Shown here piece by piece: positions 1 through 20,000 of a stretch of 20,000 bases of DNA. The notes under the pieces were generated by a model, which was not told where the DNA came from, did not search any database, and saw only the letters and a program-made list of their open reading frames with translations. The stretch lies in IMG/VR virus record IMGVR_UViG_3300000116_000008. One strand, written 5' to 3'. Made by a program: the position numbers and the translations under genes. Each line of letters begins with the position of its first letter. The stretch's first letter is position 1. The stretch is from an uncultured virus (IMG/VR IMGVR_UViG_3300000116_000008) (taxonomy: Duplodnaviria; Heunggongvirae; Uroviricota; Caudoviricetes).

Positions 1-189
1 TTTAAAAAGAATTTTCCTTTTTTACAAGACGTTAATGAGTGTTTTACCGTACTTCTCCGAAACAATAATCAAAATATTTCAGAACATAGTATGGCTAGCG
101 GGTTTGGTTCACATTATGATGAAGAAGCTCTTAAATGGTTTGCTAATTATTTACACAAGTATATAAAGTCAAATAATCTTTTACCTTGA
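1..189 (+). CDS. 3' end of a hypothetical protein (possibly SGNH-like C-terminus), truncated by window edge
   Basis: Frame 1 is open from base 1 to TGA 187-189: ...GFGSHYDEEALKWFANYLHKYIKSNNLLP*. Confidence 0.55.
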   Translation, partial: FKKNFPFLQDVNECFTVLLRNNNQNISEHSMASGFGSHYDEEALKWFANYLHKYIKSNNLLP

Positions 190-233
190 TTTATAGTCTT
201 TATTTTGCTATATTATTATTTTAGGAGGTTAAT

Positions 234-470
234 TTGGCACAATATGTAGTAAGACAAGGGAGATGGTCTAATGAAGTTACAAAATTTGATGACTCTAGGG
301 AGCCTATCGATGTATATACCTTTAATCACAGGGGATGTGGTTGTCCTGCTTGGACTCGTAATTGTAAACACGTAAAAATAGTAAAGGCTTGGGAAAAAGC
401 TGGTAAACCGTTAGGTTCAGTTTTTGACGATAGTGCTAAGATGATTGGGAATATTTTCATTAATGAGTAA
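234..470 (+). CDS. SWIM zinc-finger protein
   Basis: CxC...CKH motif (CGCPAWTRNCKH); TTG start after AGGAGG; promoter TTGATT-17-TATATT at 186-214. Confidence 0.75.
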   Translation: MAQYVVRQGRWSNEVTKFDDSREPIDVYTFNHRGCGCPAWTRNCKHVKIVKAWEKAGKPLGSVFDDSAKMIGNIFINE

Positions 471-1221
471 AACATTACTTTTAAATGATTCAACTCACTA
501 CCATCATGGCTGTGCAAAAGTAATAGAAACATTCACTTTTGATCACAGTATTGCGACTAATAGATCTATTAATGTAAATTTTTCAGATTATTCTACAGTA
601 ATTCTAAATGGTGAGGGTACTATGCACCATAATAGGAATACTGCATTGAAGTTTTTACAAGCACTAAAGGACGCTTATTTAGCTAAGTGTGATGTTCAAT
701 TAGTCAATACTGTTTGGCAAGATATGACAAATGATTATGACGATGTTCTAGCTAAATGTAGCCTTATTCAAGTAAGAGATACTATTTCACAACAAGAGCT
801 TAAAAATAGACATGGTATTGATAGTGATATAGTTCCAGACAGAAGTATTATACCGTATGTTCCTTTTCAGGACTATCCCCCTGTAAATGTTTATCAAGGC
901 AATCGTTTTGATAGTAAGGTAGAATCATTTAAGTTAGGATGTCCTAAGATTAACATTTTTAAAGAAGACTGGAATAGTATAGTTAATAGGCTGAGACACG
1001 CAAAGCTATTAGTTACAGGAAGGCATCACGAAGCATATGCAGCAATTAAAGCTGAGTGTGAATTTATATTATTACCAGGTAATACACATAAAAATGAAGG
1101 AATTTATTTAAACGCTGGAGTTTCTCCTATAAACTCGATTGATGATATAGAAGATGTTTTATCTGGTGAGTATACTAGAGAATTTAATAGGATATTTGAG
1201 TATTATGGAAAAAGTATTTAG
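463..1221 (+). CDS. Polysaccharide pyruvyl transferase-like protein
   Basis: Motifs NDS.HYHHG, NGEGTMHH, VRD, VPD, VTGRHH; likely start MSK at 463 coupled to the upstream stop. Confidence 0.65.
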   Translation: MSKTLLLNDSTHYHHGCAKVIETFTFDHSIATNRSINVNFSDYSTVILNGEGTMHHNRNTALKFLQALKDAYLAKCDVQLVNTVWQDMTNDYDDVLAKCSLIQVRDTISQQELKNRHGIDSDIVPDRSIIPYVPFQDYPPVNVYQGNRFDSKVESFKLGCPKINIFKEDWNSIVNRLRHAKLLVTGRHHEAYAAIKAECEFILLPGNTHKNEGIYLNAGVSPINSIDDIEDVLSGEYTREFNRIFEYYGKSI

Positions 1222-1585
1222 AGATTGGGGTTGGTGGAGCGTATTAGCAGAATACGATAAATCTTGTAAGATTAAAGAGTTAGTTGTCAAACCAAAGACT
1301 AAGCTTTCTTGGCAAAGACATAATTTTAGAAGTGAAGTATGGTTTGTTAGAAAAGGAACTGCTACAATCTACTATAGTGACGATAGGGAAGGATTAAAAA
1401 ATGTTTTTAAAGATACAAAAGTCGAAAAGCAAACTCATCGGATCTCACGATACCAGTGGCATTGCTTGGCTAACGAAACTAATGAAGAAGTGTCTGTTAT
1501 TGAAATTCAGTTTGGCGATGATTGTCGTGAGTCCGACATCATACGCAAGCAGCTTCCACAAGGAAGTTACCTGTTTGGCAACTAA
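1205..1585 (+). CDS. Cupin, mannose-6-phosphate isomerase type II C-terminal-like
   Basis: R.WG.W, LSWQRH..RSEVW, WH.L.N, IEIQFG..C.ESDIIR motifs. Confidence 0.8.
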   Translation: MEKVFRDWGWWSVLAEYDKSCKIKELVVKPKTKLSWQRHNFRSEVWFVRKGTATIYYSDDREGLKNVFKDTKVEKQTHRISRYQWHCLANETNEEVSVIEIQFGDDCRESDIIRKQLPQGSYLFGN

Positions 1586-1991
1586 TATTTACTGGGAAGC
1601 TCGAAATCAAACGGTATCTGGTATGCTAGGGGTCGGAATGGTAACTCGTAATAGAGTCAAGCGACAGACTTTTCCTAACACGTATTGTGGAGTTGTATAC
1701 GAAGCTAAGATGAGTAAGTGGTGGAAAACTGAACACAATAAAGATGTACCTGTAAGAAATAGATGTCAGTTTAGTTGGTACTGTGATGGTACATCTGACA
1801 AAGTACCTGCCTATGATCGTGAAGTTTGGGAAGTAGCAGTTTATTTAGCACGAGGAATATATAATGGTAGATATACTGATAATACTTTTGGTGCTACACA
1901 TTATCATGCTTACTATGTGTCACCTAAATGGGCAAAGCAATTTAGACATACTACTACTATTGATGATCACATTTTTTATAGATATGATTAA
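1482..1991 (+). CDS. Cell wall hydrolase, SleB/Hydrolase_2 family
   Basis: CLA.NIY.EARNQ, V..NRV....FPNT.C.VV, CQFSW.CDG, GATHYHA.YV.P.WA, I..HIFY; signal-peptide-like N-terminus from ATG 1482. Confidence 0.9.
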   Translation: MKKCLLLKFSLAMIVVSPTSYASSFHKEVTCLATNIYWEARNQTVSGMLGVGMVTRNRVKRQTFPNTYCGVVYEAKMSKWWKTEHNKDVPVRNRCQFSWYCDGTSDKVPAYDREVWEVAVYLARGIYNGRYTDNTFGATHYHAYYVSPKWAKQFRHTTTIDDHIFYRYD

Positions 1992-2106
1992 TGTGGGAAA
2001 ACAGATTTCAGTGTAATGAGTTTACTGACTTTACAGATTCTGATGTATAGTCCTCTACTCTTTCAAAATATACTTGCATAACTCTTAATTTTTGAATATA
2101 CTATAT

Positions 2107-2164
2107 ATGTAGATGCTCAAAAGAGGTCTACATAATTAAACTTGCTTAATAATAGGAGAAAATA
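2107..2164 (+). promoter_or_regulatory. hsp20 5' leader: stable hairpin plus ROSE-like RNA thermometer
   Basis: Hairpin ATGTAGATGCTC-AAAA-GAGGTCTACAT (2107-2133); CTTGCT (2141-2146) can pair with SD AGGAG (2154-2158) with a bulged G; promoter TTGCAT-17-TATACT just upstream. Confidence 0.6.
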
Positions 2165-2581
2165 ATGACTTTAACTAGTACATTCGCTTTTCCAAGAAGT
2201 GCGTTTCTTGGATTCGACCATATATTTGACGAACTTAATAATATTCGTTTACACGCACACGACGGATACCCACCACATAACGTAATTAAAACTGGAGAGA
2301 AGACTTACACAATTGAACTTGCTGTTGCAGGATTCAAAAAGTCTGATTTGAAAGTTGATATTAAAGATCATGTACTAACAATTGGAGGAGAGCGTGCACA
2401 ACGTAGACCTGCAGAAGATTACGTACATCGTGGTTTGAGTACCCGAAAGTTCTCAAAATCATATAGACTTTCCGAATACACAGAAGTCGTTGGAGCTGAC
2501 CTAAACGATGGTATATTGACTGTCAACTTAGAAGTAATTGTTCCACAGGAAAAACTTCCGAAGGCAATATCTATCAAATAG
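2165..2581 (+). CDS. hsp20: Small heat shock protein Hsp20 (IbpA-like)
   Basis: FLGFD..F, YPPHNVI, Y.IELAVAGF, YVHRGLSTRKF, V.GADL.DGIL.V.L. Confidence 0.95.
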   Translation: MTLTSTFAFPRSAFLGFDHIFDELNNIRLHAHDGYPPHNVIKTGEKTYTIELAVAGFKKSDLKVDIKDHVLTIGGERAQRRPAEDYVHRGLSTRKFSKSYRLSEYTEVVGADLNDGILTVNLEVIVPQEKLPKAISIK

Positions 2582-2625
2582 TGTTGGTGTCTCTTTAAAT
2601 AAAACTTAATTTAAGGAGAAATGAT

Positions 2626-2853
2626 ATGACAACTATGTCTATAACTGCATTTACTTGCAGTGCATGCGAAAAAATCGCAACTATGTTTAACAATCTTTTT
2701 AGAAAAGTACGATTTGGAATGCAGATGTCTGCAAACCAAAGAGTCGCTAGAGAGTTAATCCACTTAGGCTTTCATCAGCAAAAAGAGTTTAACCAGCTTC
2801 TACAAAGAATGAACGATCAAGCTATAGAAGAATACTATGACAACAAGAAGTAG
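2626..2853 (+). CDS. Hypothetical protein
   Basis: ORF with AAGGAG RBS directly after hsp20. Confidence 0.7.
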   Translation: MTTMSITAFTCSACEKIATMFNNLFRKVRFGMQMSANQRVARELIHLGFHQQKEFNQLLQRMNDQAIEEYYDNKK

Positions 2854-2910
2854 TATCTGATGTGGCCTTATACTGAAGATGAGAACGACTTCTTATCTAA
2901 ATAAAAAAGC

Positions 2911-2941
2911 GAATGGGGGCTATGATTGTAGCTCCCTTCTT
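2911..2941 (+). terminator. Probable intrinsic terminator of the hsp20 unit
   Basis: GGGGGCTA-TGATTG-TAGCTCCC stem followed by TTCTT; overlaps the -35 of the next promoter (TTGCAT-17-TATTAT, 2940-2968). Confidence 0.55.
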
Positions 2942-2998
2942 GCATTATACCCCAAAATATTGTATTATAAGTTATAAATTTTTAAAAGGAGAATTATT

Positions 2999-3202
2999 AT
3001 GACTAAAGGCGAAATAAATTTTGCAATAAGACCTGACTACAATCAGGAATCTACAGACGCAACTTCCGTAGTACCTGAGATTGACTACAAATTTTCTTTT
3101 GATCACTCTCAAGGTCTTCAACTTAGTATTCAAGAGATTGATTATCATTTTAATAAATGGTTACTATCTTTAGGTTATGAGAGAAAAGGATCTAGTCAAT
3201 GA
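2999..3202 (+). CDS. Hypothetical protein
   Basis: ORF with AAGGAG RBS after a promoter. Confidence 0.65.
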   Translation: MTKGEINFAIRPDYNQESTDATSVVPEIDYKFSFDHSQGLQLSIQEIDYHFNKWLLSLGYERKGSSQ

Positions 3203-3429
3203 AAATAGGAGATCAAATACTCAAAGCAGCTTTACTACAAGCTAAAGGTCAAGTAGAAGTACATAAAACTAACATTTTAGTTTATCAAAATATGCCAGCA
3301 GGTATTGGAGAGCATAGTGATGTTACTGAAGCAGTTATTTCTGAATTAGATAAGCTGGCTTCAGCTAATGATAGAATTGATATGTTAAGATACTACTTTG
3401 ACATAGAAGATGAACATGACTTTGAATAA
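3199..3429 (+). CDS. Hypothetical phage protein (GIGEH motif)
   Basis: ATGA overlap; PAGIGEHSD motif typical of a small marine-phage protein family. Confidence 0.75.
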   Translation: MKIGDQILKAALLQAKGQVEVHKTNILVYQNMPAGIGEHSDVTEAVISELDKLASANDRIDMLRYYFDIEDEHDFE

Positions 3430-3455
3430 ACTATTGGCTTAGATACTAAATATAA

Positions 3456-3529
3456 AGGGGATAAGTGTTATGGTAGCACGGCAGGCTCCAACCCTGTAAG
3501 CGTGGGTTCGACTCCTACATCCCTTGCCA
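3456..3529 (+). tRNA. tRNA-Trp (CCA)
   Basis: Acceptor AGGGGAT/ATCCCTT, G discriminator, encoded CCA end; anticodon arm GCAGG-CTCCAAC-CCTGT; T-loop TTCGACT. Confidence 0.92.
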
Positions 3530-3550
3530 ATTTTTAGGAGGACAATTATA

Positions 3551-3775
3551 ATGTATGCGATAAAATGTACACCAAGCAAGTATAACCCAAATGATTGGTA
3601 TTTACTCAGAGATTTAAATGATTATGTTGTTCATGTGTGGACAAGAGAATCTGAAGTAAAAAAGTTACTTGCTGAATTGAAAAATAATACTCTTGAGATA
3701 ACACAAGATATCCCTCGATTGGCTCTTGAAAGGGCAACGGCTAAAAAAAGAGCAAAATTGACTGAAAAGGAGTGA
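3551..3775 (+). CDS. Hypothetical protein
   Basis: AGGAGG RBS then ATG 3551; the track's TTG start lies inside the tRNA. Confidence 0.7.
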   Translation: MYAIKCTPSKYNPNDWYLLRDLNDYVVHVWTRESEVKKLLAELKNNTLEITQDIPRLALERATAKKRAKLTEKE

Positions 3776-3777
3776 AG

Positions 3778-4185
3778 ATGAATAAATTAATTAGTTTAAC
3801 AACTATTGGAATCGTAACCTGTTTTGTGAGCACTGCTAATGCAACACAACCTCATTCTGCAAAAGTTAGTGATCATTACAAAGCAGTTATAGTAAAGATA
3901 CCAACAGATTATGAAGTATGCACAAAAGGTAACGGTAAAACAGATTTAGAGAATTTTATTACAGGAGGTATTGTTGGTGGAGTGATTGGTAACAATATTC
4001 CTGGAGAAAAAGGGGGCGGAGCATTGGGTGCTATACTAGGCGGAGCATTAAACGCTGAAGCTAATAAAGGCATAAAATGTACAAAGCACACTCATTATGA
4101 AAAAAAGATGGAAACTATTTACTCACACAGCACTATAACCTTTACTTATGATGGTAGAAGTTATACTGTAAGATTTACAAAGTAG
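3778..4185 (+). CDS. Glycine-zipper domain envelope protein
   Basis: Signal-like N-terminus; GGIVGGVIG...GGALGAILGG glycine zipper. Confidence 0.7.
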   Translation: MNKLISLTTIGIVTCFVSTANATQPHSAKVSDHYKAVIVKIPTDYEVCTKGNGKTDLENFITGGIVGGVIGNNIPGEKGGGALGAILGGALNAEANKGIKCTKHTHYEKKMETIYSHSTITFTYDGRSYTVRFTK

Positions 4186-4261
4186 GTCTCGTAGCTCAAC
4201 TGGACAGAGTATCGGTCTACGAAACCGAGGGTTGCAGGTTCGAATCCTGCCGAGATCACCA
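4185..4261 (+). tRNA. tRNA-Arg (ACG)
   Basis: Acceptor GGTCTCG/CGAGATC-ACCA; D arm GCTC-AACTGGACA-GAGT; anticodon arm TCGGT-CTACGAA-ACCGA; T-loop TTCGAAT. Confidence 0.95.
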
Positions 4262-4281
4262 AATTAAGGAGAGAGAACTAA

Positions 4282-4776
4282 ATGCATAGAATATCTGCAT
4301 ATTGGAAAGATAAAACTATAGTTAGGTTATTCAGATGTGTTTACGACGCTATTGACTTTAAAGATATTATGGATGCAAATTATCCTGATAAAGTAAAATT
4401 CGAAAAAGGAGTATTTTCAATGAGAGAATGGACATATGATATGTGGAATGTTATTATGGATAGTAAGCATAATCCACTACGGAATATCCCAGATTTGCAA
4501 GTTAGGCACCTGGTTATGCAAGTGTTGGCATGGATGTGGTGTATCACATTTTCTATGTATTTTAGTTCTATGTGGATGTTTGGCATTACTGCTATTGCAC
4601 ATGCAATACTAATAGCAGCTATAGTTGTTACAGTTTCTACTTTTACTACAGCTAGTTTAAATCCTATATTTTTTATAAAAAAAGGTTATCATACACCAAG
4701 TAGAACTAGAGCGCTATATTATAACGGAAAAAGAATTGAACTCGATGCAAACGACCCTGGAGGCGAGCACGATTAA
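4282..4776 (+). CDS. Hypothetical membrane protein (possible internal start at 4420)
   Basis: AAGGAG RBS; two hydrophobic helices; NPLRNIPDLQVRH.VMQVLAWMW motif. Confidence 0.7.
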   Translation: MHRISAYWKDKTIVRLFRCVYDAIDFKDIMDANYPDKVKFEKGVFSMREWTYDMWNVIMDSKHNPLRNIPDLQVRHLVMQVLAWMWCITFSMYFSSMWMFGITAIAHAILIAAIVVTVSTFTTASLNPIFFIKKGYHTPSRTRALYYNGKRIELDANDPGGEHD

Positions 4777-4785
4777 GGAGAGCAA

Positions 4786-4938
4786 ATGTTAGGAAGATTA
4801 ATTGAATACACCCGTACCACAACTTATCAACACAAACCAAGGAGAAAGTATATGACACCGAACCCACACTATATTAATATGATGATTAATATTGGTATAT
4901 TCGCTATGTTAGTTTACGTTGCTATACAAGTTAGTTAA
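4786..4938 (+). CDS. Small hypothetical membrane protein (50 aa)
   Basis: AAGGAG RBS, C-terminal hydrophobic stretch; below ORF-track cutoff. Confidence 0.5.
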   Translation: MLGRLIEYTRTTTYQHKPRRKYMTPNPHYINMMINIGIFAMLVYVAIQVS

Positions 4939-4950
4939 AGGAGAACATCA

Positions 4951-5148
4951 ATGTTTTATGATATTGATAAACTAAACGACTTAGAAAAAACTGTGAGTGA
5001 TAATTTAGCCTCAGCTGATAATCATACACAACATAATGACCATAAAACACATTGGATTAACTATCGAACTGATATGCCTAATTGTTTAATGGTTATTAGA
5101 GAATATAAAGAATTACTACGACAACTTAACTTAAGAAAGGAAAACTAA
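4951..5148 (+). CDS. Hypothetical protein
   Basis: AAGGAG RBS, operon packing. Confidence 0.65.
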   Translation: MFYDIDKLNDLEKTVSDNLASADNHTQHNDHKTHWINYRTDMPNCLMVIREYKELLRQLNLRKEN

Positions 5149-5333
5149 TGGGAATTATTATATTAGCACTAGGTATGTTCAGCATGGACACACAAGAATT
5201 TAGAGAAACTGCTAATCAGCAAGTAAAAGAAGGATACAAATGGACTTATGTCGGTAAGCAAGCACCATCAGGAGTTCCAGCTATCACTCTAAAGTCAAAT
5301 GGCGATGAATATATACTTTGGAAATTAAAGTAA
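5148..5333 (+). CDS. Hypothetical protein
   Basis: TAATG overlap, N-terminal hydrophobic segment. Confidence 0.6.
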   Translation: MGIIILALGMFSMDTQEFRETANQQVKEGYKWTYVGKQAPSGVPAITLKSNGDEYILWKLK

Positions 5334-5557
5334 TGACAGTAACATACATGACTGATGGTTCACCTAAATCTTGGGATAAAAAGCTACGTACTTATGAAGT
5401 AACTTATCCCAGTGGTCAGAAAGTGTTTTGGAAAGACTATACTGCTCGTGATGCGCTAACTAAGTATGATGGTCACAACTCTATGTATAATTATGAATTA
5501 AAAATCCGAGAGATCGAAGGTAAAGAACTTGCCTTAAAAAAGATTATGGATAAGTGA
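5333..5557 (+). CDS. Hypothetical protein
   Basis: TAATG overlap gives start MTVTY. Confidence 0.6.
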   Translation: MTVTYMTDGSPKSWDKKLRTYEVTYPSGQKVFWKDYTARDALTKYDGHNSMYNYELKIREIEGKELALKKIMDK

Positions 5558-5635
5558 TAGCAAACCTACTTTGTGCTTATCAAATGGTTATTTTTTGTGT
5601 ATTATATAAATAACAATCAAAAATAGGAGATTTTA

Positions 5636-5782
5636 ATGGCAACTAACATTGTACTTTATGGCGTAGCTGCAGCAGCACTTATACTAACTTTCATGGCTAC
5701 TAATGAGTTAGAAAATAGATTTGTAGAAATTGAGAAACAAATTGAAATTCAAAATACTATCATTGATAAACTAAGAAAGTAG
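5636..5782 (+). CDS. Small TM + coiled-coil protein (48 aa)
   Basis: AGGAG RBS; MATNIVLYGVAAAALILTF... Confidence 0.55.
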   Translation: MATNIVLYGVAAAALILTFMATNELENRFVEIEKQIEIQNTIIDKLRK

Positions 5783-5789
5783 GTGAAGC

Positions 5790-5954
5790 ATGGATAATTT
5801 GCAAGAAAAACTACAAGAAACTATTCAAGAGTTAAAAGAAGTCATGGAAGCTCGTAAAGCTAAGATGGACGACCTTAAACGAGAAATTGAAGAGCTTGAA
5901 GAAGAAAATGTCGCATTAGAAGAAAGCATTAAAGGAATCTTAGATGACTTCTAA
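5790..5954 (+). CDS. Small coiled-coil protein (54 aa)
   Basis: AGGTG RBS; E/K/L heptads. Confidence 0.55.
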   Translation: MDNLQEKLQETIQELKEVMEARKAKMDDLKREIEELEEENVALEESIKGILDDF

Positions 5955-6582
5955 TGAACCACATGATATGGCTAAAAGTTGGCTTGAGTGGTTAAAGCAT
6001 AATCCTGACCCTGCAAGTTACCTATCTCCTGACGACTGGAGAACTCAAGCTAACATCTGGATTGACTTAGGCTATTCTTGTGTGAAAACACCATTACTAC
6101 CTAAATATCAGTATCATATTATAGATCGTTGCTTGCGTGGAGCTTCTGACATTATATCTTGTGAGACTACCGCAGTTCATTCAAACACCTCTAGTTTAAT
6201 ACAATGGTGTAAACAATGGAGTAGGGGAGCAGTTCAAGAGTATGCACAACTATTTGAAGTACTCAAAGAGGATCGTGCAGGAAAGCCGCCAACTCATCGC
6301 CAGGTGTGTGAGTCGAGAGATGCTAGCAGAAAACGACACTTCACTGCAGAACATCAGTTCCCCATCATGATACCTAAAAAAGGCATTCGTGATAGAGGAT
6401 GGACACTAGAAAAGGCTCGCAATTGGATGTGGCAACACTCTAAGGTCACGATAGTTACTCAAGCAGAAAATAAACGACTCCTACCTTTCACAGAGGATAT
6501 GGAGATAGCGAGTAAAAGATATTCAGATGCAGACATTGAGATTTGTATCCACCCTAAATATTTGGCTGACGACAATGTTTAA
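5944..6582 (+). CDS. Hypothetical protein, possible His-Me/HNH-like nuclease fold
   Basis: AEHQFP ... VTIVTQAENKRL pattern. Confidence 0.45.
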   Translation: MTSNEPHDMAKSWLEWLKHNPDPASYLSPDDWRTQANIWIDLGYSCVKTPLLPKYQYHIIDRCLRGASDIISCETTAVHSNTSSLIQWCKQWSRGAVQEYAQLFEVLKEDRAGKPPTHRQVCESRDASRKRHFTAEHQFPIMIPKKGIRDRGWTLEKARNWMWQHSKVTIVTQAENKRLLPFTEDMEIASKRYSDADIEICIHPKYLADDNV

Positions 6583-6787
6583 GAATAAAACTGCCTGTGC
6601 AGCACTAGACGCGTATTATATTCAGCACAATGTAGCAGACTTTCAATATGAAGGTATGAGCGGTAAAGCTGCGTTTGAACTCTATTGTATACATAACGAC
6701 GAGTTCCTTCTTGAGTTACTTTGTGCTTATCTTGACCTAGTCAATAATATTAAAGCTATATACCCCGCTGTACCACAGAGCGTTTAA
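6575..6787 (+). CDS. Hypothetical protein
   Basis: Overlapping start MFKN, operon packing. Confidence 0.5.
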   Translation: MFKNKTACAALDAYYIQHNVADFQYEGMSGKAAFELYCIHNDEFLLELLCAYLDLVNNIKAIYPAVPQSV

Positions 6788-7134
6788 TGACCTTATTTTT
6801 TATACTACTTCTCAAACATGCAATTGTAGACTTAGGCGTACAATCTCACTTTTCTGGATTACGTAAGCAGGCATATATCAGTAATGCACACATACATTAT
6901 CTGCATCACGGAATATCAACTCTGCTCATTGCAGCATTCTTTGTAGACCCCCTCCTTGCAGTAGCTTGTGCTATTATTGATTATCTAGCACACTGGCATA
7001 TAGACTGGGGAAAGCATCGTATTAATACAGCTTTTAGCATTAAAAGTCGATCTCGTTTATGGTGGTGGACAAATTCAGTTGACCAGCTACTTCATTTTGT
7101 TACTTATTACATTATTGTTCTCATAGGAGTATAA
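6787..7134 (+). CDS. DUF3307-like membrane protein
   Basis: KH..VD..VQ, H..HHG, HWHIDW.K, DQLLH motifs in hydrophobic helices. Confidence 0.8.
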   Translation: MTLFFILLLKHAIVDLGVQSHFSGLRKQAYISNAHIHYLHHGISTLLIAAFFVDPLLAVACAIIDYLAHWHIDWGKHRINTAFSIKSRSRLWWWTNSVDQLLHFVTYYIIVLIGV

Positions 7135-7135
7135 C

Positions 7136-7543
7136 ATGGTTACAGGACATGATATCTATCGTCATTTTAACCTCAAAACAACTCAAGATTTATTTGGAGT
7201 GTATATAGGTTGGCAACAGATACGACTATATCGAGCGCCCTTAAAGATTGGGCGTAGTAAAAATGCAGCAGCCATACAACGTGGTAGAGCGCAAGGAGGA
7301 GCTGACTGGTGGTTTTCTTCTTATTTTTTACTACCTGACAATGAAGCTACCTACATTGTAGAACGACAGATCAAATCACAACTAAAACAATATAACATCA
7401 AAGGTACCCAACGACAAACAGAATTGTATATCCTAGATGCTGAAGAAGCAAAGCATCAGATTAGAGCAATCCTAACTCAACTCGGTTACGAAGTTATAGA
7501 TATTGTCCCAGAAGTTAAAAATTTACACATTGCACACTCTTAA
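7136..7543 (+). CDS. GIY-YIG/T5orf172-like nuclease domain protein
   Basis: GVYI...LKIGRS...R..Q ... VERQI ... TELY pattern. Confidence 0.55.
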   Translation: MVTGHDIYRHFNLKTTQDLFGVYIGWQQIRLYRAPLKIGRSKNAAAIQRGRAQGGADWWFSSYFLLPDNEATYIVERQIKSQLKQYNIKGTQRQTELYILDAEEAKHQIRAILTQLGYEVIDIVPEVKNLHIAHS

Positions 7544-10483: not shown

Positions 10484-10645
10484 ATGGATCACAGAGATTT
10501 CGCAATTGAACTAACAGAGAATATGGGTTTCTCAGCAAAGGATATGCTGGTAGCTTGTCTAAAGTATATGTCGCAGGACGATGTAAAAGATATGTTACAT
10601 TGTAACGAATATCCAACTAGCACAGAAGAGGCAAACCATGTTTAA
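10484..10645 (+). CDS. Small hypothetical phage protein (53 aa)
   Basis: GAGGG RBS; ACLKYMS.DDV.DML motif. Confidence 0.6.
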   Translation: MDHRDFAIELTENMGFSAKDMLVACLKYMSQDDVKDMLHCNEYPTSTEEANHV

Positions 10646-10767
10646 AATACTAAAGAAATTTCACGACCCAAACTATGTTATTATAACACCTTGTGTACTG
10701 TTATACACTTATGGTGCTTATGTATTTATTATAGATATTTTTTCCTAAAGGACTTCGTAAATATTAT

Positions 10768-11931
10768 ATGAAAAAAATAATCACAACAAGTCCTCCACCA
10801 TACCCTGTGTTTAAGTCTGAACATATTCAGAAACTTGCTTACAGTATTTATGAAGATAAAAGATCAGTTGATTCTTATTATTTTAATGGTGAGACAGACT
10901 TTGAAAAAGAACTAATTAATTATTTAGGTACAAAACATTGCTTTGTTACTAACTCAGGACATGCTTCTATTTATATTGCCTTAATGGCTGCTGGAGTTGG
11001 TCCAGGCGACGAAGTAATTACTACATCTATATCTTGGGGACAAAGTTTATCTCCAATACTACAACTAGGAGCAATTCCAGTTATGTTAGATATTGATGAA
11101 TCTTTCCAATTAAACTACTTTCATTTAAGTTCTGCTATTACAGATAAAACTAAAGCCGTACTTGTTGTAAATCTTTATGGTGCTAGCGCTAATTTAGATA
11201 AAATTAGAAGTGTTTGTGATGCTCACAAGTTAATTATGATTGAAGATGCTGCTCAAAGCATGGGATTAAAATATAAAAATAAGTATACAGCTACTTGGGG
11301 TCATATAGGTGCTTTAAGTTTTAATTCGGGAAAACTTCTTCCTATCGGCGGAGCAGGTGCAATTGTTACTGACTCTGATGATCTTTGGCACAAGATTTTA
11401 TACTATGGATCAAAGGCTGCACATAAAAGAAAAGGTTTAGTTGGTACTGATTATGAATGTGATGGCATGGATTATACGTTTTTATGTCACCCCTTACTTC
11501 AAGAAATGGGTAGAATTCAACTTCGACAACTATCTAAAATGAACAAAAACAGGAGGGCTAATATTGCTCTTCTACGTAGTTTAATCGACACTACACACTT
11601 TGATTTACAACATATACCTGAGGGATCAGATACTCCTGCGTATATATTTTCTTTTGTGAATAAAACAAAACTTAAGATCGATCAGTTAATAAAACTATTC
11701 AAACAGGTGGGCTTACCTATGTTTAGGTACAATCCGTTTCCACTTTCAAACATTCCTGGTTATACAAGATTTACCAATTACAGATATAGTATGTGCACTA
11801 ACGCTGAGAGACTATCTAAAAATGAACTTTGTATCACGAGTTATAAGTGGTATACTGAAGATACTGATTATATTGAACAGTACGCTAAAGCAATTAACTA
11901 TATTTCTGATGAGGTAAGTAAGAATGTTTGA
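10768..11931 (+). CDS. DegT/DnrJ/EryC1/StrS family PLP-dependent aminotransferase
   Basis: NSG..S, GVGPGDEVIT, GAIPV..DI, VNLYG, IEDAAQS.G, SFNSGK (PLP lysine), GGAG. Confidence 0.92.
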   Translation: MKKIITTSPPPYPVFKSEHIQKLAYSIYEDKRSVDSYYFNGETDFEKELINYLGTKHCFVTNSGHASIYIALMAAGVGPGDEVITTSISWGQSLSPILQLGAIPVMLDIDESFQLNYFHLSSAITDKTKAVLVVNLYGASANLDKIRSVCDAHKLIMIEDAAQSMGLKYKNKYTATWGHIGALSFNSGKLLPIGGAGAIVTDSDDLWHKILYYGSKAAHKRKGLVGTDYECDGMDYTFLCHPLLQEMGRIQLRQLSKMNKNRRANIALLRSLIDTTHFDLQHIPEGSDTPAYIFSFVNKTKLKIDQLIKLFKQVGLPMFRYNPFPLSNIPGYTRFTNYRYSMCTNAERLSKNELCITSYKWYTEDTDYIEQYAKAINYISDEVSKNV

Positions 11932-12739
11932 ATTTTTTGATAAAAGACCTGCTGACATCAATAAACAAATAATTGATAGCTGGGAGGAGTCTAAACTCCA
12001 TCTTGATGCATTCTCTACTGATGAGATAAATCAATTGATTAAAATATTCAAAACTGCACCTAAAACAAATAATATGACCAAACAGAATAAAATGTTTGAT
12101 GATTTTTTAAATAGTGAAAGCGTTGATAAAACTATAACCCCAGGTTCAAGATTTGGACAAGGATCTGGAGCCTGCTCTGCTCCTGTGTGTTGGGACGAAG
12201 GTAGTAAAGAGATATTAGATCCTGTACTTAGAAGATATATTGGCGATTATAAAATAGTTGGTGGAACTTTTAACATTACTATGAATCCTTATCGATTACA
12301 TACTGATAGTGGCAGATTGAAAGAAACTAAAATCCACAAACAAATCATTATACCACTACACTGGGATAAGTCTCTTGATATATACAGTATACTATATGAT
12401 CAAAGATGGACAGGGTGCCAGGCTAGATTTCAACGAGGTATACCTACTACATCTGAAGAAAAATTTACTACATCTACTCACATGACTATAACTGACTATG
12501 AGAATAGTGAGATTCATAATTTAACTAATGCTTCGTTTGACAAGCGAATGTATGAGAGCCTTGTATCTCATATCAACTATGAGAGTTTGTGGGGATTTAG
12601 TGTAGAACTAGCTGCTAAATGGACTCCAAGATCCTTAATCGCTTATGATAGAAGTGTTATTCATAGTTCTTGTCATTTTGCTAGTAGTAAACTAAAAACT
12701 AAACTATTTATTACTTTAGTCACAGAACAAGCTGATTAA
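11924..12739 (+). CDS. Putative 2OG-Fe(II) oxygenase-fold protein
   Basis: LHTD (HxD), IIIPL, D...IHSS and K.FI pattern of a DSBH fold. Confidence 0.55.
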   Translation: MFEFFDKRPADINKQIIDSWEESKLHLDAFSTDEINQLIKIFKTAPKTNNMTKQNKMFDDFLNSESVDKTITPGSRFGQGSGACSAPVCWDEGSKEILDPVLRRYIGDYKIVGGTFNITMNPYRLHTDSGRLKETKIHKQIIIPLHWDKSLDIYSILYDQRWTGCQARFQRGIPTTSEEKFTTSTHMTITDYENSEIHNLTNASFDKRMYESLVSHINYESLWGFSVELAAKWTPRSLIAYDRSVIHSSCHFASSKLKTKLFITLVTEQAD

Positions 12740-12803
12740 TGCCATCATTATATTAAAATTTAATTTTTATGGCGGGGTAATTCGTAAAACTACCACTTTT
12801 CGA

Positions 12804-12832
12804 TTGCCCAAAGGCTAATTTTTTTATATTAT
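12804..12832 (+). promoter_or_regulatory. Sigma70-like promoter driving the non-coding region
   Basis: TTGCCC-17 nt-TATTAT, same type as other phage promoters here; no ORF downstream. Confidence 0.7.
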
Positions 12833-12838
12833 ATATTT

Positions 12839-13310
12839 ATAAAGATTGAAAGAGGCATCATCCTCTGGGCAACAGGGTTAGGTGGTAACGCCAAACGAGT
12901 TTGCGAAGTGTAAAACCAGGTAAATGATCCAACGGAGTCACGGAACGCGTCTCAGCCATCTCTCAACTTTATTGGGAAGTTGCACCCATTAATGCAATAG
13001 CAATCAGCTGAACGAGAGCTTAGAAATGGGCTTCAGTCGAGCCAAGTTATGGATGCGTAAGAGATACCGATGGGCGTTCCTCGAGGGGTCAGGGAGACAT
13101 CGTTAAAAACTCCCCCTTATTCTGTTGTTTCGGTAGGGATAACCAACTTAAAAAAACCCACCACAAAGAACACGGGTCAACCGATTGCCATAAGCTGAAC
13201 AGGAGTCAGGCGAGTACGCGGGATGTAAGATGACAGTAAGTTCACTTTCACGCTTAGCCACCTTTTGAAAATTTTACTCACGAAGATGCTTCGCACGATT
13301 GACCCCCATT
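12839..13310 (+). ncRNA. Putative structured ncRNA(s), three closed domains, unknown family
   Basis: Promoter-driven, no ORF, GC-enriched; closing helices 12839-44/12967-72, 12977-82/13144-49, 13174-80/13299-305; ends in T-tract. Confidence 0.65.
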
Positions 13311-13316
13311 TTTTGA

Positions 13317-13345
13317 TTGCTAACAGGTTTATTTTTTCGTATTAT
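13317..13345 (+). promoter_or_regulatory. Sigma70-like promoter
   Basis: TTGCTA-17-TATTAT. Confidence 0.7.
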
Positions 13346-13420
13346 ATTTATATAAGATAACAAGAGGGAAGGAAAATGCCTCACAACTATTTTCCAACTG
13401 ACTTTTTAAGAGGTGAATAT

Positions 13421-13738
13421 ATGTCAGCTACTACCCAGAAATCAGCGAATTATACTGCTGATATGGTCAATCAAATGACCGAAATGTATAATGAATTAGG
13501 CAATGATGGCATAGACCAGATTGCTGACACTCTCGGCAAGTCCGTAAGGTCTGTCAGAAGTAAACTCGTTCGCGAGGGTGTTTATGTAGCTAGTCCTAAG
13601 AAGACTGCTTCAAAACTAGAGGGTCCTTCTAAAAAAGAGATTCTCAGAGATATCGAGTCTAACGGCTTTGATGTGTCAGGTTTTGAGGGCGCCACGAAAG
13701 CGGCACTCACTAGATTAATGGGTGTAGTAGCTAACTAG
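13421..13738 (+). CDS. T5 A2/D3-like DNA-binding protein
   Basis: NY..E...M...Y, IA..LGKSVRSVRSKL.REGVY, LE.ATK..L pattern resembling T5 A2 (SVRSKL); GAGGTG RBS before ATG 13421. Confidence 0.7.
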   Translation: MSATTQKSANYTADMVNQMTEMYNELGNDGIDQIADTLGKSVRSVRSKLVREGVYVASPKKTASKLEGPSKKEILRDIESNGFDVSGFEGATKAALTRLMGVVAN

Positions 13739-13739
13739 C

Positions 13740-14490
13740 TACTCGCCAAGAGTTTCAGGAGGTGGAACTTATTAGCTCCACCTACTACTGCCATCTTCAC
13801 GATTATTTTATAATCGCATAGGGACGTCTAATAAGAGGAAGTGGCAACCTACCCATAGAGGTAAGAGCTATGGGGTGTTTAAGTACGCGACTTGACACAG
13901 TTGATTCTAGGGGACGGGTTCTCTGAAAACTAGAATCCATGCAGAGGAAAGCTGCGATGACAAATAAAACCCTGTGGTGACTTACACATTCCCAAAGTCG
14001 ATTGTCGGTTAGGCGCTAAGATTTCTAAATCCGACACACTGGCACCCTAAGGTCCCGCAGGTAACGAAAGTTCGTGGACCTAGGTAGTGCCAAAACTGAC
14101 TAGTCGCATGAGGCTATTCAGTAAGTTGAATAGGGGAGACACTGTCAAGTCTTCGGATAAGCACAGAGCCCTATTCATTAAACTCCGACCCTCGACACAA
14201 ACTATATGTTTGATGCTGGTAAGAACTGGAGTTGGGTAAAAGGCGATAGGCATTACGGTTACCTGCTCTGTCCTCTAACAGTCACTGTAAGAGAACATCA
14301 AAACGGACTTGTAATCGCCTTTTTACTTTCAGAGCTTGTCGTAGGCTCTTCTTCTGCAGAGGCGAAACTACGAGTCGGGAAGGGATTAATACAATGCGTA
14401 CCCTTAGTGAGTAGGCGAGGTTGGCGGCAACTCACAACATATTTTACTTTAAAGTTCAAGAAAGGAGCAGCGACGGTTGTTCCTTTCTTG
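13740..14490 (+). ncRNA. Putative large, multi-pseudoknotted ncRNA (~750 nt), unknown family
   Basis: More than 12 local hairpins plus several 7-9 bp long-range complementarities; GC-enriched; no credible ORF; ends at a strong hairpin. Confidence 0.75.
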
Positions 14491-14496
14491 CGTTTT
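14457..14496 (+). terminator. Terminal 15-bp hairpin, probable terminator
   Basis: CAAGAAAGGAGCAGC-GACG-GTTGTTCCTTTCTTG then CGTTTT; overlaps promoter TTGCGT-17-TATTAT (14488-14516). Confidence 0.65.
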
Positions 14497-14546
14497 AGCC
14501 TATTTTTTGATATTATATATACATAATTAAAAAAGGAGCAAAATGT

Positions 14547-15068
14547 ATGACAAACCAAGTATCACGAGATTATGAACCTCTTACTAGTTTAGCACAAAGA
14601 AACACTGAGGATTTAACAGTTGTTCTTGAAAATGAGCCTATCACAACACCTTATAGACGTTCCCAATTACCACAATGGACAATCAGAGATATAATTAAGT
14701 ATGATTATACTTATTACTTTGGGATAGCACTATGCTCAAGTTTAAAACCTACTCAACTTCAAGAAGAGTATGAAGAGTTTAGGACTCTACGTAAGATTCA
14801 TGAGTTAAAGCATGGAGTATTTGACCCTATTATAGTAGACTGTGATTACTTTATTATCTGCGGACACCACAGACATAAAGCGATAAAAGAGCATTATTCA
14901 TATAGCTATCGAACACCTATTATCTGTTTAGAAGGAGTTACCCATGGTTTGGTAACAAGCTTCTACGAGAGTTGTCAATTACATCTTCAAGGTCAACTAG
15001 ATGAGCAAGCAAGAGCAATTGAAGAGTATGATTATGGAAAACTACAAGCTGGAAAGGAAATATTATGA
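14547..15068 (+). CDS. ParB/sulfiredoxin-like N-terminal domain protein
   Basis: LKPTQ, PIIVD....ICGHHR..A motif; AAGGAG RBS. Confidence 0.7.
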   Translation: MTNQVSRDYEPLTSLAQRNTEDLTVVLENEPITTPYRRSQLPQWTIRDIIKYDYTYYFGIALCSSLKPTQLQEEYEEFRTLRKIHELKHGVFDPIIVDCDYFIICGHHRHKAIKEHYSYSYRTPIICLEGVTHGLVTSFYESCQLHLQGQLDEQARAIEEYDYGKLQAGKEIL

Positions 15069-15517
15069 TTTATTTTGCATCTGACCACGGAGGTTATAAG
15101 TTAAAAGAACGACTATTTATGAGACTATCTAAGGAAGGTTATTCAACCTATGATTTAGGTTGTGCAGGTACTCAAATTTCGTGTGATTATCCACTGTTTG
15201 CACAACGCTGTGCTAATGCTATGATCGAGGAGGGCGAAGGATTCGATCCAAATTCATTTGGTGTGCTAATTTGTGGAACTGGAATTGGTATTTCTATGGC
15301 TGCTAATCGTTATAGTCATATTAGAGCTGCTCTTTGTTTAAATCTTACTTATGCTCGACTAGCTCGTGAACACAATAATGCAAATGTACTTTGTTTGCCA
15401 GGTCGCTTTATGGAGTTTGAAGATGCCTACGCAATCTTACACACCTTTTTAAGTACTCAACCTTCTAAAGAAGCTAGACACGCAAGACGATTGGAGCTGA
15501 TGAATGCAATCAACTAA
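15065..15517 (+). CDS. rpiB: Ribose-5-phosphate isomerase B (RpiB/LacA/LacB family)
   Basis: SDHGG, DYP, ICGTGIG.SMAANR, IRAA, AREHNNANVL, RH.RR. Confidence 0.92.
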   Translation: MIYFASDHGGYKLKERLFMRLSKEGYSTYDLGCAGTQISCDYPLFAQRCANAMIEEGEGFDPNSFGVLICGTGIGISMAANRYSHIRAALCLNLTYARLAREHNNANVLCLPGRFMEFEDAYAILHTFLSTQPSKEARHARRLELMNAIN

Positions 15518-15707
15518 TATCTGTGACTCCTGTCAGAGTGAGACTATCGACTCTGAACTATACTGGAATGAAGATTGCTCTCCACTGTGTGAGGACTATA
15601 CAATGCCCTCAAAGTGGGACGCAGTTTGTGCATCTTGCTTTGCAAAAGCACTTTCTGAGGGGTTAATCACTTGGAAAAATGCAGTTGAGCTTGCCAAAAA
15701 CAAATAA
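15504..15707 (+). CDS. Small Zn-finger-like protein
   Basis: Two CxxC pairs. Confidence 0.55.
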   Translation: MQSTNICDSCQSETIDSELYWNEDCSPLCEDYTMPSKWDAVCASCFAKALSEGLITWKNAVELAKNK

Positions 15708-15750
15708 TTTTGATATTATAAATAATAATCAGAAAAAGGAGCAACCAAAC

Positions 15751-15936
15751 ATGAACGACCCATTTGAGCCACTTAGACTTGCTACTGACCACTATAACAT
15801 CTCAAGAGATGAGTTTGTAGCCAAAATTGATGCAGTGTGGAGCACTAATTCTGTCTTCTACACTCAAGCACTAGCACACTATGACCAAATCCAAAAGGAC
15901 ATGGCAGAATATACGAGGTATGCCAATGCAATATAA
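15751..15936 (+). CDS. Hypothetical protein
   Basis: Promoter TTGCCA-17-TATTAT (15691-15719), AAGGAG RBS, ATG 15751. Confidence 0.6.
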   Translation: MNDPFEPLRLATDHYNISRDEFVAKIDAVWSTNSVFYTQALAHYDQIQKDMAEYTRYANAI

Positions 15937-16189
15937 TAGAATGACAGATGCAGCTATCTTAAAAGCACACCCAAATACGCAGTATGCATTTCAGCAGTGG
16001 AAAGCACGTGTTGACAAGATATGTGTTAAAGCATTTATGATGCCTTCTTCTTGCCTACCTGATGCAGGTTGGAGATGTAGCTTTGAATCCTCACTTACTC
16101 CACGAGAAGCAGTTGAATCTGCAGTTGAATTTTGTTGGAGATATGAGCCAGGCGTCCAAGATTGCTGGTATGGAGATGTGACTCAATGA
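15920..16189 (+). CDS. Hypothetical phage protein
   Basis: GAGG RBS; F..W...VD....LPD..WR..F...TP..A motif. Confidence 0.6.
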   Translation: MPMQYNRMTDAAILKAHPNTQYAFQQWKARVDKICVKAFMMPSSCLPDAGWRCSFESSLTPREAVESAVEFCWRYEPGVQDCWYGDVTQ

Positions 16190-16515
16190 CAATTATTAAT
16201 TTATCAGACTGGAAACGTAAAGGCAAACGAGAAAGCATACAAGCACAGATTGACAATCCACAAGAGGACAACGATGAGGTAATGTGCTCCTTTACCTTAG
16301 AAGAGAGTGAAGACGAATTTGAATTCACACTCGAGACAGAACCGTACCCACTACCTGTTGCCCAGAGAACACTTTTTGGTTGGAGTGTCCAGATTTGGGA
16401 CTTTCATCAACAGCAGTGGGTACATCTGCCAGACTACTTTACTACTGAGACAGAAGCACTAGATCTAGGAGAGGCAATTATGAGGGAGAGCGACAATGCA
16501 GCATTTTTCGAATAA
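16186..16515 (+). CDS. Hypothetical protein
   Basis: GGAG RBS, ATGA overlap. Confidence 0.6.
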   Translation: MTIINLSDWKRKGKRESIQAQIDNPQEDNDEVMCSFTLEESEDEFEFTLETEPYPLPVAQRTLFGWSVQIWDFHQQQWVHLPDYFTTETEALDLGEAIMRESDNAAFFE

Positions 16516-19190: not shown

Positions 19191-19313
19191 AATATCGACT
19201 TTCCACTGGTGCAGGCAAGCACTACTGAAGGCATTTCAAATTTGCACTGGCGCAAGCAGGCGATAGTAAGATACTTTCACATTTGCACTGGTGCAGGTAG
19301 GCACTGCACATAA
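19191..19313 (+). repeat. Three degenerate 41-bp tandem repeats
   Basis: CACTGGYGCARG cores at 19204, 19245, 19286. Confidence 0.8.
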
Positions 19314-19338
19314 AAAAATAGGGAGCCGAAGCTCCCTA
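19312..19338 (-). terminator. Intrinsic terminator of the minus-strand A2-like gene
   Basis: Minus strand TAGGGAGC-TTCG-GCTCCCTA-TTTTTTT. Confidence 0.85.
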
Positions 19339-19357
19339 AGTCTCGCACGAAGTGCGA

Positions 19358-19657
19358 TTAGTTAGTGAAGTGGGCTAAAAGTCTAACTATAGCCTCTTTC
19401 GTTGCCCCCTCTAAACCTGCAACGTCAACACCGGTCTGCTCTAGGTCCTTAAGAAGTTCCTTCTTAGTTGGACCTAAGACCTTAGTTGATGTCGACTTTG
19501 GCTTAGCAACGTAGACACCTTCTCTAACTAACTTTGATCTTACTGACCTAACTGACTTACCAAGATCAGATGCGATATCGATAATGTCTGTGCCTGCTAA
19601 GTAGTCAGATGTGATTTTAGCAACTTGAGCTGCTGAGTAGTTTGGTGATTTAGTCAT
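19358..19657 (-). CDS. Second T5 A2-like DNA-binding protein (paralog of 13421-13738)
   Basis: Identical LGKSVRSVRSKLVREGVYVA core plus GP.KKE and EGATK; AGGGAG RBS before ATG 19657. Confidence 0.75.
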   Translation of the reverse strand: MTKSPNYSAAQVAKITSDYLAGTDIIDIASDLGKSVRSVRSKLVREGVYVAKPKSTSTKVLGPTKKELLKDLEQTGVDVAGLEGATKEAIVRLLAHFTN

Positions 19658-19775: not shown

Positions 19776-19805
19776 TTGACAACGGGCACCAAAGTATGGT
19801 ATAAT
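19776..19805 (+). promoter_or_regulatory. Consensus sigma70 promoter, divergent from the A2-like gene
   Basis: TTGACA-18-TGgTATAAT (extended -10). Confidence 0.8.
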
Positions 19806-20000
19806 AGTGGCGCTGCGCGCAAGACTCTTTAACTAGTTAACAATTGGCCGCTTCGCGGTAGGACTTCTACTTCGAATTGTCACTTTTTCACTGGCGCTAC
19901 GCGCCACTATAATCGACTTTTCACTTTACTACTGGTGCTGGGGAGCACTCTTTAATTGCGAATGCTAGTGCGACTCGTTATCATTCGCAGGGGGCCAAAA

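Follow-up and report, generated by a model that had tools for sequence, protein, structure and literature searches.

Two structured RNAs on either side of an A2-like gene are probably parts of one large modular phage RNA

Introduction

A cassette at positions 12800-14520 of the viral record IMGVR_UViG_3300000116_000008, an uncultured member of the Caudoviricetes, raises the question of why a small protein gene stands between two long stretches that contain no open reading frame (ORF) of substance. Positions refer throughout to the 20,000-nucleotide (nt) stretch of DNA analysed, here called the window, and the cassette lies on its plus strand. The order is a promoter-like site (P1), an ORF-free stretch of ~475 nt (RNA A, 12841..13314), a second promoter-like site (P2), an ORF of 105 amino acids (aa) resembling the A2 protein of phage T5, a second ORF-free stretch of ~720 nt (RNA B, 13739..14456) directly 3' of that ORF, a terminator-like hairpin and a third promoter-like site (P3). 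A preliminary description of this DNA had reported the same order from the first promoter to the terminator, which our analysis confirms, the T-run of the terminator comprising four T only. It had also proposed that the A2-like protein is the partner of the two RNAs. The evidence presented here points to a different relationship: RNA A and RNA B are probably parts of a large modular phage RNA that has been split by an insert consisting of a terminator, a promoter and a gene.

Conservation and structure of RNA A and RNA B

Both RNAs are conserved in marine metagenomes. Homologous loci were found on viral contigs (12 loci) and on metagenome contigs (79 loci), and the close relatives L015, L016, L017, L062, L068 and L071 carry both RNA stretches. 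Compared with L015 and L016, RNA A shows ~85% and RNA B 78-87% nucleotide identity; in the same two loci identity falls to 67% in the gene downstream of the cassette, and the upstream gene is missing. The guanine-plus-cytosine (GC) content of the ORF-free stretches is 44-49% versus ~33% nearby. Positions 12841-13314 and 13739-14456 contain short ORFs only, of odd composition, and the runs of inserted or deleted positions (indels) are not multiples of three in 28 of 29 cases in RNA A and 62 of 74 in RNA B. Where real ORFs occupy the RNA intervals of relatives, they are not related to the RNA stretches.

As a single sequence, RNA B folds better than its shuffled versions (z -4.35). For RNA B, RNAalifold on 6 sequences gives 183 predicted pairs, of which 28 have double changes; for RNA A, on 4 sequences, the figures are 115 and 11. 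The covarying 3' core of RNA B (14124..14436), which is captured by covariance model R1, was aligned in 35 sequences. Here 94.5% of the cells are paired, as against 76.0% in shuffles and 39-45% with slid partners, and double changes occur at 55 of 79 pairs, a level reached by none of 500 shuffles. The exchanges in helix 3 are of C and U opposite G, which fits an RNA read off the plus strand. Compensated pairing, frame-breaking indels, and an own promoter and terminator-like end together indicate, from small window-type alignments and a larger one fitted to its model, that RNA A and RNA B are conserved, promoter-driven structured non-coding RNAs. They are members of a modular RNA family carried by uncultured marine phages. 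The earlier view of both stretches as structured RNAs is thus borne out by covariation, by indels and by the fold of RNA B, the single-sequence fold of RNA A having a z of +0.19.

It is very improbable that the two stretches are not functional RNAs at all, and represent instead genes in decay, DNA-level recombination cassettes or hitch-hiking spacers. The missing thermodynamic signal of RNA A would suit such an origin, as would the repetition of promoter-plus-hairpin cassettes and the varied genes inserted at module junctions (see below). However, the compensatory and G-U-compatible changes are specific to the plus strand, nucleotide conservation is above that of neighbouring genes, the stretches share no protein similarity with the ORFs of relatives, and their sequences are found in assemblies of RNA libraries.

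Known families do not account for the stretches. Against Rfam 15 (4227 models) the window gives two transfer RNAs (tRNAs) only above gathering thresholds, and 12700-14600 gives no E value below 0.68, the weak rows being unrelated small families. Group I and group II introns, transfer-messenger RNA (tmRNA) and RNase P were rejected as identities, since neither Rfam nor ARAGORN gave a match.

Modular composition

The 5' module of RNA A, M1 (12843..12960), contains two long-range helices, both of which covary. One is GCAUCAU/AUGAUSC; the other, CUGG/CCAG, reads CCGA/UCGG in relatives. Two of the pairs in M1 carry double changes in 10 of 23 sequences. The covariance model of M1 (R2) scores 97.5 bits in the window; across 100 sources it matches 31 times, once at each locus. 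M2 (13080..13116) is a GAGGGG...CCCC block, CTCGAGGGGTCAGGGAGACATCGTTAAAAACTCCCCC, which aligns with TGAGGGGCAGGGGAAACGACG..AAAAA..CCCC of relatives and occurs also in the joined RNAs described below. The 3' module of RNA A, M3 (13132..13314), combines a hairpin, a closing-helix domain and a T-run. The hairpin, GGTAGGGATAACC..AAAAAAACCCACC at 13132-13162, has the general module form GGATAACC..AAAAAACC. The closing helix pairs GGGTCAA (13174-13180) with TTGACCC (13299-13305) and covaries, the variants being GGGTCAA/TTGACCC, GGGGAAG/CTTCCCC and GGGCGAG/CTCGCCC, and a run of six T (13309-13314) forms the end of RNA A. In each of 46 distinct M3 sequences the terminal T-run stands directly 5' of the next promoter.

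M5, in which the 3' core of RNA B ends, consists of a helix TCGTAG/CTACGA, the segment GAGTCGGG, a hairpin and a stem-loop (14407-14435) with the loop GAGGTTGGYG. This loop is nearly invariant in 35 sequences, Y being T in relatives and C in the window and L016; such conservation suggests a specific binding partner. Searched against 92 sources, model R1 has 44 matches, each of them on the plus strand, and the match lies downstream of the A2-like gene in all 42 loci for which the position of the gene was recorded. M5 always forms the 3' end of its unit, whether messenger RNA (mRNA), M1 RNA or tRNAs lie upstream; in locus L115 it stands directly 3' of two tRNA genes. M5 behaves as a portable domain that closes units at their 3' end. 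In viral contigs, no exact match was obtained with 23- and 24-mers taken from the RNA A and RNA B of the window. A 17-mer from the M5 loop is present in more than 120 bacterial contigs, but none of 80 such loci examined passes R1, and these matches were dismissed as chance.

Relatives carry further genes at the module junctions. They encode a family of 202-219 aa starting MKIGIFG (L003 930-1589, L006 3056-3691, L009 279-887) and proteins of 284 aa (L010 2255-3109) and 179 aa (L004 3194-3733), and tRNA genes occur at junctions in L003, L025, L125 and L115. The junctions 3' of a T-run and a promoter look like insertion hot spots.

A joined form of the RNA

Searches that started from the RNAs show that the modules of RNA A and RNA B also occur as one piece. 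Twelve of the 80 16-mer loci examined for M1 passed R2. Four of these lie on contigs with an adjacent A2-like gene, and the other eight have none within 3 kilobases (kb). For M5, 10 of the 80 17-mer loci examined in viral contigs passed R1; an A2-like gene is directly upstream in five and absent within 3 kb in five. The eight gene-less M1 loci (L345, L374, L328, L366, L356 and L321 among them) have one promoter-like site 5' of M1, and neither a further promoter-like site nor a run of at least five T occurs before the end of M5. M1 through M5 therefore form one unit. This joined unit is ~450-830 nt long, is ORF-free, and comprises M1, an M3-type hairpin, in some cases a module of the manA type, and M5.

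The ancestral type of unit would have run from M1 through an M3-type hairpin to M5 as a single ORF-free RNA under a single promoter. In the lineage of the window this RNA would have been interrupted by the rest of M3, namely its closing-helix domain and U-run, together with P2 and the A2-like gene. Two transcripts would be the outcome, RNA A of ~475 nt and an mRNA of ~1.1 kb of which RNA B makes up the 3' two-thirds. The A2-like gene may then be regarded as cargo on an RNA transcription unit and not as its defining component. We infer the direction of this change, splitting as opposed to fusion.

The A2-like gene and its paralogue

The ORF between the RNAs is listed as 13376-13738. Its probable start is the ATG at 13421, which is preceded by AAGAGGTGA, because most of 120 listed homologues are 105 aa long. 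The gene (13421..13738, plus strand) thus defined encodes 105 aa with a helix-turn-helix-type motif, LGKSVRSVRSKLVREG. The ORF matches the profile phrog_1725 with an E value of 3.7e-8, a profile that T5 A2 itself matches at 4.3e-52, and BLASTP aligns residues 4-102 of the protein with residues 2-125 of T5 A2 (E 9e-5, 29% identity). The profile match and the near full-length pairwise similarity place the protein in the T5 A2 family. The designation A2-like, already used in the preliminary description, is therefore justified, and these comparisons identify the ORF as a true, though distant, relative of T5 A2. The two proteins are alike in their family-level match and in length; they differ in that identity is only 29%, and in their settings, a cassette among accessory genes in the window and the terminal pre-early block in T5. 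T5's own A2 region, searched with the M1 model, has no M1 match.

The database contains 1810 homologues of the A2-like protein, most of them from marine surveys, and the system is therefore common in the sea. Against L015 and against L016 alike, the gene shows 19 synonymous versus 4 non-synonymous codon changes, which points to purifying selection. AlphaFold2, given a 12-sequence alignment, predicts four helices (predicted local distance difference test score 82.6). Foldseek found no match to this predicted fold at E <=0.001, and its top weak rows were DNA-binding folds of the myb/homeodomain kind (best E 0.42). A Pfam search returned nothing for the ORF; PF26822 on its homologues is a precomputed tag only. 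The record of T5 A2 carries a DNA-binding annotation.

A paralogue is encoded on the minus strand at 19358-19654, with 59.6% identity over 99 aa and a match to phrog_1725 at 1.1e-4. Earlier the protein had been called duplicated and basic. The duplication is evident, and the protein is only mildly basic, with an isoelectric point of 7.9 (9.4 for the paralogue). No RNA module adjoins the paralogue; models R1 and R2 each match the window once, in the cassette.

Several features surround the paralogue. At least five copies of repeats of the type CACTGGTGCAGGCAAGCACT flank it on both sides (19200-19310, 19870-19950), and a clean hairpin with a T-run lies on its 3' side (~19320-19345, minus strand). 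On the plus strand, 19776-19806 is a perfect consensus promoter (TTGACA, 17 nt, TATAAT) back to back with the upstream region of the paralogue, and this looks like a divergent control region. In the loci L074-L076 (e.g. L075 2069-2803), proteins of 244 aa contain three tandem copies of the A2-type helix-turn-helix (..SVRSVSSKL.., ..SVNSVRGKAL.., ..TVRGVKTML..). Candidate distant A2 homologues in L077-L092 were rejected, as they are 452-aa proteins with only a short C-terminal stretch in common.

Relation between the gene and the RNAs

Surveys that started from the protein, duplicates included, cover 59 loci with 800 nt or more of flanking sequence, 40 of which have M5 downstream, and 23 loci with 2200 nt or more, 18 of which have M1 upstream. 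At the 19 loci with more distant A2-type domains, the RNAs are absent. The synteny survey called for in the preliminary description thus shows flanking RNAs to be frequent in one clade and not universal. As the RNAs occur without a nearby gene in loci found from the RNA side, a gene beside them is not needed. Five whole records were searched for the gene. An A2-like gene lies ~6 kb away in two, the sole A2-like match in a 91%-complete relative of 107 kb is weak (E 3.5e-6) and 54 kb distant, and two small fragments have no A2-like gene. Independent occurrence of RNAs and A2-like genes, which had been named in advance as a finding that would speak against a partnership, is therefore seen in part, in the RNA-first loci without an adjacent gene; two of the five records do have the gene at ~6 kb.

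Could the A2-like protein nevertheless bind RNA A, RNA B or both in a dedicated ribonucleoprotein, for instance through the M5 loop of its own transcript? In favour of this, the gene lies in one transcription unit with RNA B, their adjacency is frequent in one clade (the 40 of 59 and 18 of 23 loci above), the M5 loop is closer to invariant in 35 sequences than pairing requires, and in two of five records the gene lies ~6 kb from the joined RNA. We nevertheless judge this explanation unlikely. Of the loci found from the RNA side, 8 of 12 for M1 and 5 of 10 for M5 have single-unit RNAs without the gene nearby, the 91%-complete relative offers only its weak and distant match, the window paralogue has no adjoining RNA, and 19 of the 59 clade loci have no M5 downstream. 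The protein is moreover small and helical, its sole weak fold neighbours bind double-stranded DNA, and the T5 A2 record names DNA as the ligand. The proposal that the A2-like protein is the partner of the RNAs is accordingly not supported, with the absence of RNAs at all 19 loci of distant A2-type domains pointing the same way.

Transcription units

A promoter-like motif, TTG-N20-TATTATAT, occurs in three exact copies on the plus strand, at 12804-12834 (P1), 13317-13347 (P2) and 14488-14518 (P3), and there is no fourth exact copy on that strand within the cassette. With one mismatch allowed, 9 matches were found versus 1.66 expected, a number reached in none of 200 shuffles. P1 (TTGCCC, 17-nt spacer, TATTAT) stands 5' of RNA A, and its -35 and -10 positions are conserved among relatives, the spacer being variable. 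P2 stands 5' of the ORF and RNA B and is conserved in relatives immediately 3' of the M3 T-run. The 5' end of the P2 transcript holds a leader hairpin GAGG..CCTC (13364..13382) that resembles the start of RNA A. Both transcripts begin ..GAGAGG / GAGGG ..loop.. CCTC, from which we infer that the two starts are related.

As had been described, the stop codon of the A2-like ORF (TAG, 13736-13738) is enclosed in a hairpin of 7 base pairs (bp; 13726..13743), in which AGTAGCT (13726-13732) pairs with AGCTACT (13737-13743). No T-run follows it. This hairpin is present in L015, L016 and L017 and missing from L068 and L071. No promoter-like site is listed on the plus strand in 13493-14487.

Eight runs filed as metatranscriptomes contain 49-64% of the sampled words of the window. 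Four of them, from four studies, were compared by contig, as assemblies and not as reads. All four have contigs on the cassette; 13 of the 14 pieces lie within 12852-14454, and one lies at 10500-10631. In three of the four, contigs cross the stop codon into RNA B (13479-14426, 13553-14454 and 13562-14407). Two low-depth contigs run from M3 through P2 into the leader. The uncovered intervals 10632-12851 and 14455-16500 were not used as evidence, as the runs were chosen for containing window sequence, and contig depth cannot rank expression. Because no promoter or terminator separates them and contigs cross the stop codon in three assemblies, the ORF and RNA B appear to be transcribed as a single unit, which supports the co-transcription suggested earlier.

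Three observations concern these units and libraries. Inside the A2-like ORF, 13464-13492 (plus strand) resembles a promoter (TGGTCA, 17 nt, TATAAT; 10 of 12 matches), and the starts of the stop-crossing contigs (13479, 13553, 13562) neither fit nor exclude it. Contigs of three RNA libraries begin or end at 13156-13161, in the run of seven A in the M3 hairpin loop; this could be a low-complexity assembly break or a processing site. In run X18, a 229-nt contig with a word depth of 1699 matches the window over 35 nt only (12919-12953), and its loose ends resemble M1 of L010-type relatives.

The terminator-like hairpin of 14 bp (14458-14489) is followed by GCGTTTT to 14496 and overlaps the -35 of P3. 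At its pairs 944:965 and 949:960 (numbering of alignment A1), both sides are changed in two of five sequences. A scan for consensus terminators did not call it, because its T-run is of four T only. P3 (14488..14518) aligns with relatives at 79-86% identity and serves the next gene (14547-15068, plus strand), which has a weak ParB-like N-terminal match (phrog_12047, 1.5e-4). With 67% nucleotide identity in L015 and L016, that gene is less conserved than the RNAs.

The manA module and a role in cis

Relatives carry the manA motif (RF01745) between the A2-like stop and M5. Three matches reach the gathering cut-off of 55.2 bits (L125 61.3, L029 56.3, L019 55.2) and three fall just under it (L034 54.9, L020 54.8, L025 50.3). 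The module starts ~57 nt after the A2-like stop (L034) or lies inside the ORF-free RNA (L125). A ~31-nt insertion in RNA B of the window (14092..14122), shared with the near-identical L014 only and a gap in all five other sequences of alignment A1, holds CTGACTAGTCGC; this string is similar to the 3' portion of the manA module found in relatives, and L034 and L125 have a comparable one.

In 2010 manA was described as a 5'-untranslated-region (5'-UTR) riboswitch candidate of marine phages (PMC2864571). RNA B might by analogy act in cis, as a manA-type riboswitch leader of the next gene or as a long 3' UTR that stabilises or terminates the A2-like mRNA, RNA A being a separate small-RNA gene. The constant position of M5 at the 3' end, regardless of whether an mRNA, an M1 RNA or tRNAs precede it, agrees with a 3'-UTR role. 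A role in cis seems doubtful, however. The terminator-like hairpin and the conserved P3 stand between RNA B and the next gene, and a conserved multi-helix structure of more than 700 nt exceeds the needs of a 3' end. The same modules are also found with no mRNA attached, and the window has no manA match. Nor is the 5'-UTR position found in the relatives, where M5 and then a separate promoter lie 3' of the manA module.

Genomic setting and phage lineage

The window is AT-rich phage DNA (~33% GC) with many small plus-strand genes and two tRNA genes. Accessory genes encode Hsp20/ibpA, a cell-wall hydrolase, a sugar aminotransferase, RpiB and a mannose-6-phosphate-isomerase-type cupin. The lineage was approached through G001, the same phage (34 kb, covering window positions 1-7401), and G002, the 91%-complete relative. 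Neither T5 A1 nor the T5 major tail protein has a match in G001 or G002, so the frame of a marine T5-like phage, adopted at first, is unconfirmed. T4 gp23 has no match in either, a result made uninformative by controls that were likewise without a match. The best cultured relative of the Hsp20 protein belongs to a Kyanoviridae phage (49.6% identity), which has no M1.

In 50,697 phage records, neither blastn of the cassette nor tblastn of the ORF found a match, and blastn of the joined RNA of L125 found only a ~50-nt promoter stretch in Klebsiella phages. That stretch, L125 2165-2216 (the promoter 5' of M1), has 85-86% identity to unannotated intergenic DNA in 77 Klebsiella phage records, mostly of 106-123 kb among the matches listed; it is the sole nucleotide match to cultured phages.

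Interpretation

The division of one modular RNA by a terminator-promoter-gene insert remains the account that we prefer, and several points weigh against it. By itself, RNA A does not fold better than its shuffles, and the alignments of the window type are small, with 4 and 6 sequences. The 35-sequence alignment (A4) was fitted to its model, which therefore favours pairing. The loci are not independent, several of the viral and metagenome entries being identical or nearly identical contigs. Contigs from RNA libraries give neither strand, nor ends, nor level, and such libraries can contain DNA. The partner suggested by the M5 loop could be a protein. Finally, no match to manA is seen in 12700-14600 with E allowed up to 10, nor in the window-type loci L015 and L068 with E up to 0.1, so the analogy with a manA cage rests on the relatives.

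The anatomy, conservation, covariation, module shuffling and RNA-library presence are observed here. By analogy, our best guess at a role is that of a self-assembling scaffold RNA: the RNAs would act in trans as folded molecules and would likely self-assemble or serve as a scaffold like manA, GOLLD and ROOL. A more elaborate version is improbable in our estimation. In it, the split RNA A and RNA B would re-associate in trans, for example by contact between the invariant AACC in the hairpin of M3 and GGUU in the loop of M5, and would build a manA-like scaffold or cage that includes the A2-like mRNA, with the protein made at or loaded onto the particle. The A2-like mRNA would then be physically within an RNA assembly. 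Between the two RNAs, no contact was found that is both complementary and covarying.

The same modules are found in a single chain or divided between two transcripts with a gene in the middle. This is a natural experiment on how large RNAs tolerate splitting, and the joined and split forms offer a concrete pair of constructs for structural work. The A2 family and the manA module were already known. M1, M2, M3 and M5, the joined and split arrangements and the nested protein gene are in no Rfam family or paper found; the literature search, which did not extend to the supplements of PMC2864571, gave no paper on M1, M3, M5 or the joined manA-containing RNA.

Comparison with known systems

The split and joined arrangements have parallels outside the known large phage RNAs. 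Two-piece tmRNA comes from a split or permuted RNA gene, in which one fold is made from one or two transcribed pieces; the RNA fold considered here would likewise be encoded either whole or in two parts with a transcript each. RNAIII and SgrS are dual-function transcripts, at once mRNA and structured RNA, and the P2 transcript resembles them in carrying a coding region together with a large structured RNA.

GOLLD, ROOL and OLE are large ornate RNAs that form RNA-only multimers (PMC12286853). The RNAs of the cassette are similar: they span several hundred nt, are ORF-free, elaborately structured and phage-borne, and have tRNA genes adjacent in relatives. Unlike them, these RNAs match no Rfam model, have a modular, permuted order, and contain a protein gene nested in one unit.

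A further comparison is with manA. In a 2026 preprint, manA RNAs are reported to assemble in vitro into decamers and into a 60-mer cage. The two systems are both marine and phage-borne, with an ornate multi-helix fold, and two kinds of neighbour gene listed for manA in PMC2864571, the mannose-6-phosphate-isomerase-type cupin and Hsp20/ibpA, are present in the window. They differ in that M1, M2, M3 and M5 lie outside the Rfam family. In one phage group, the natural setting of manA appears to be a much larger modular transcript, with at least four further conserved modules outside Rfam.

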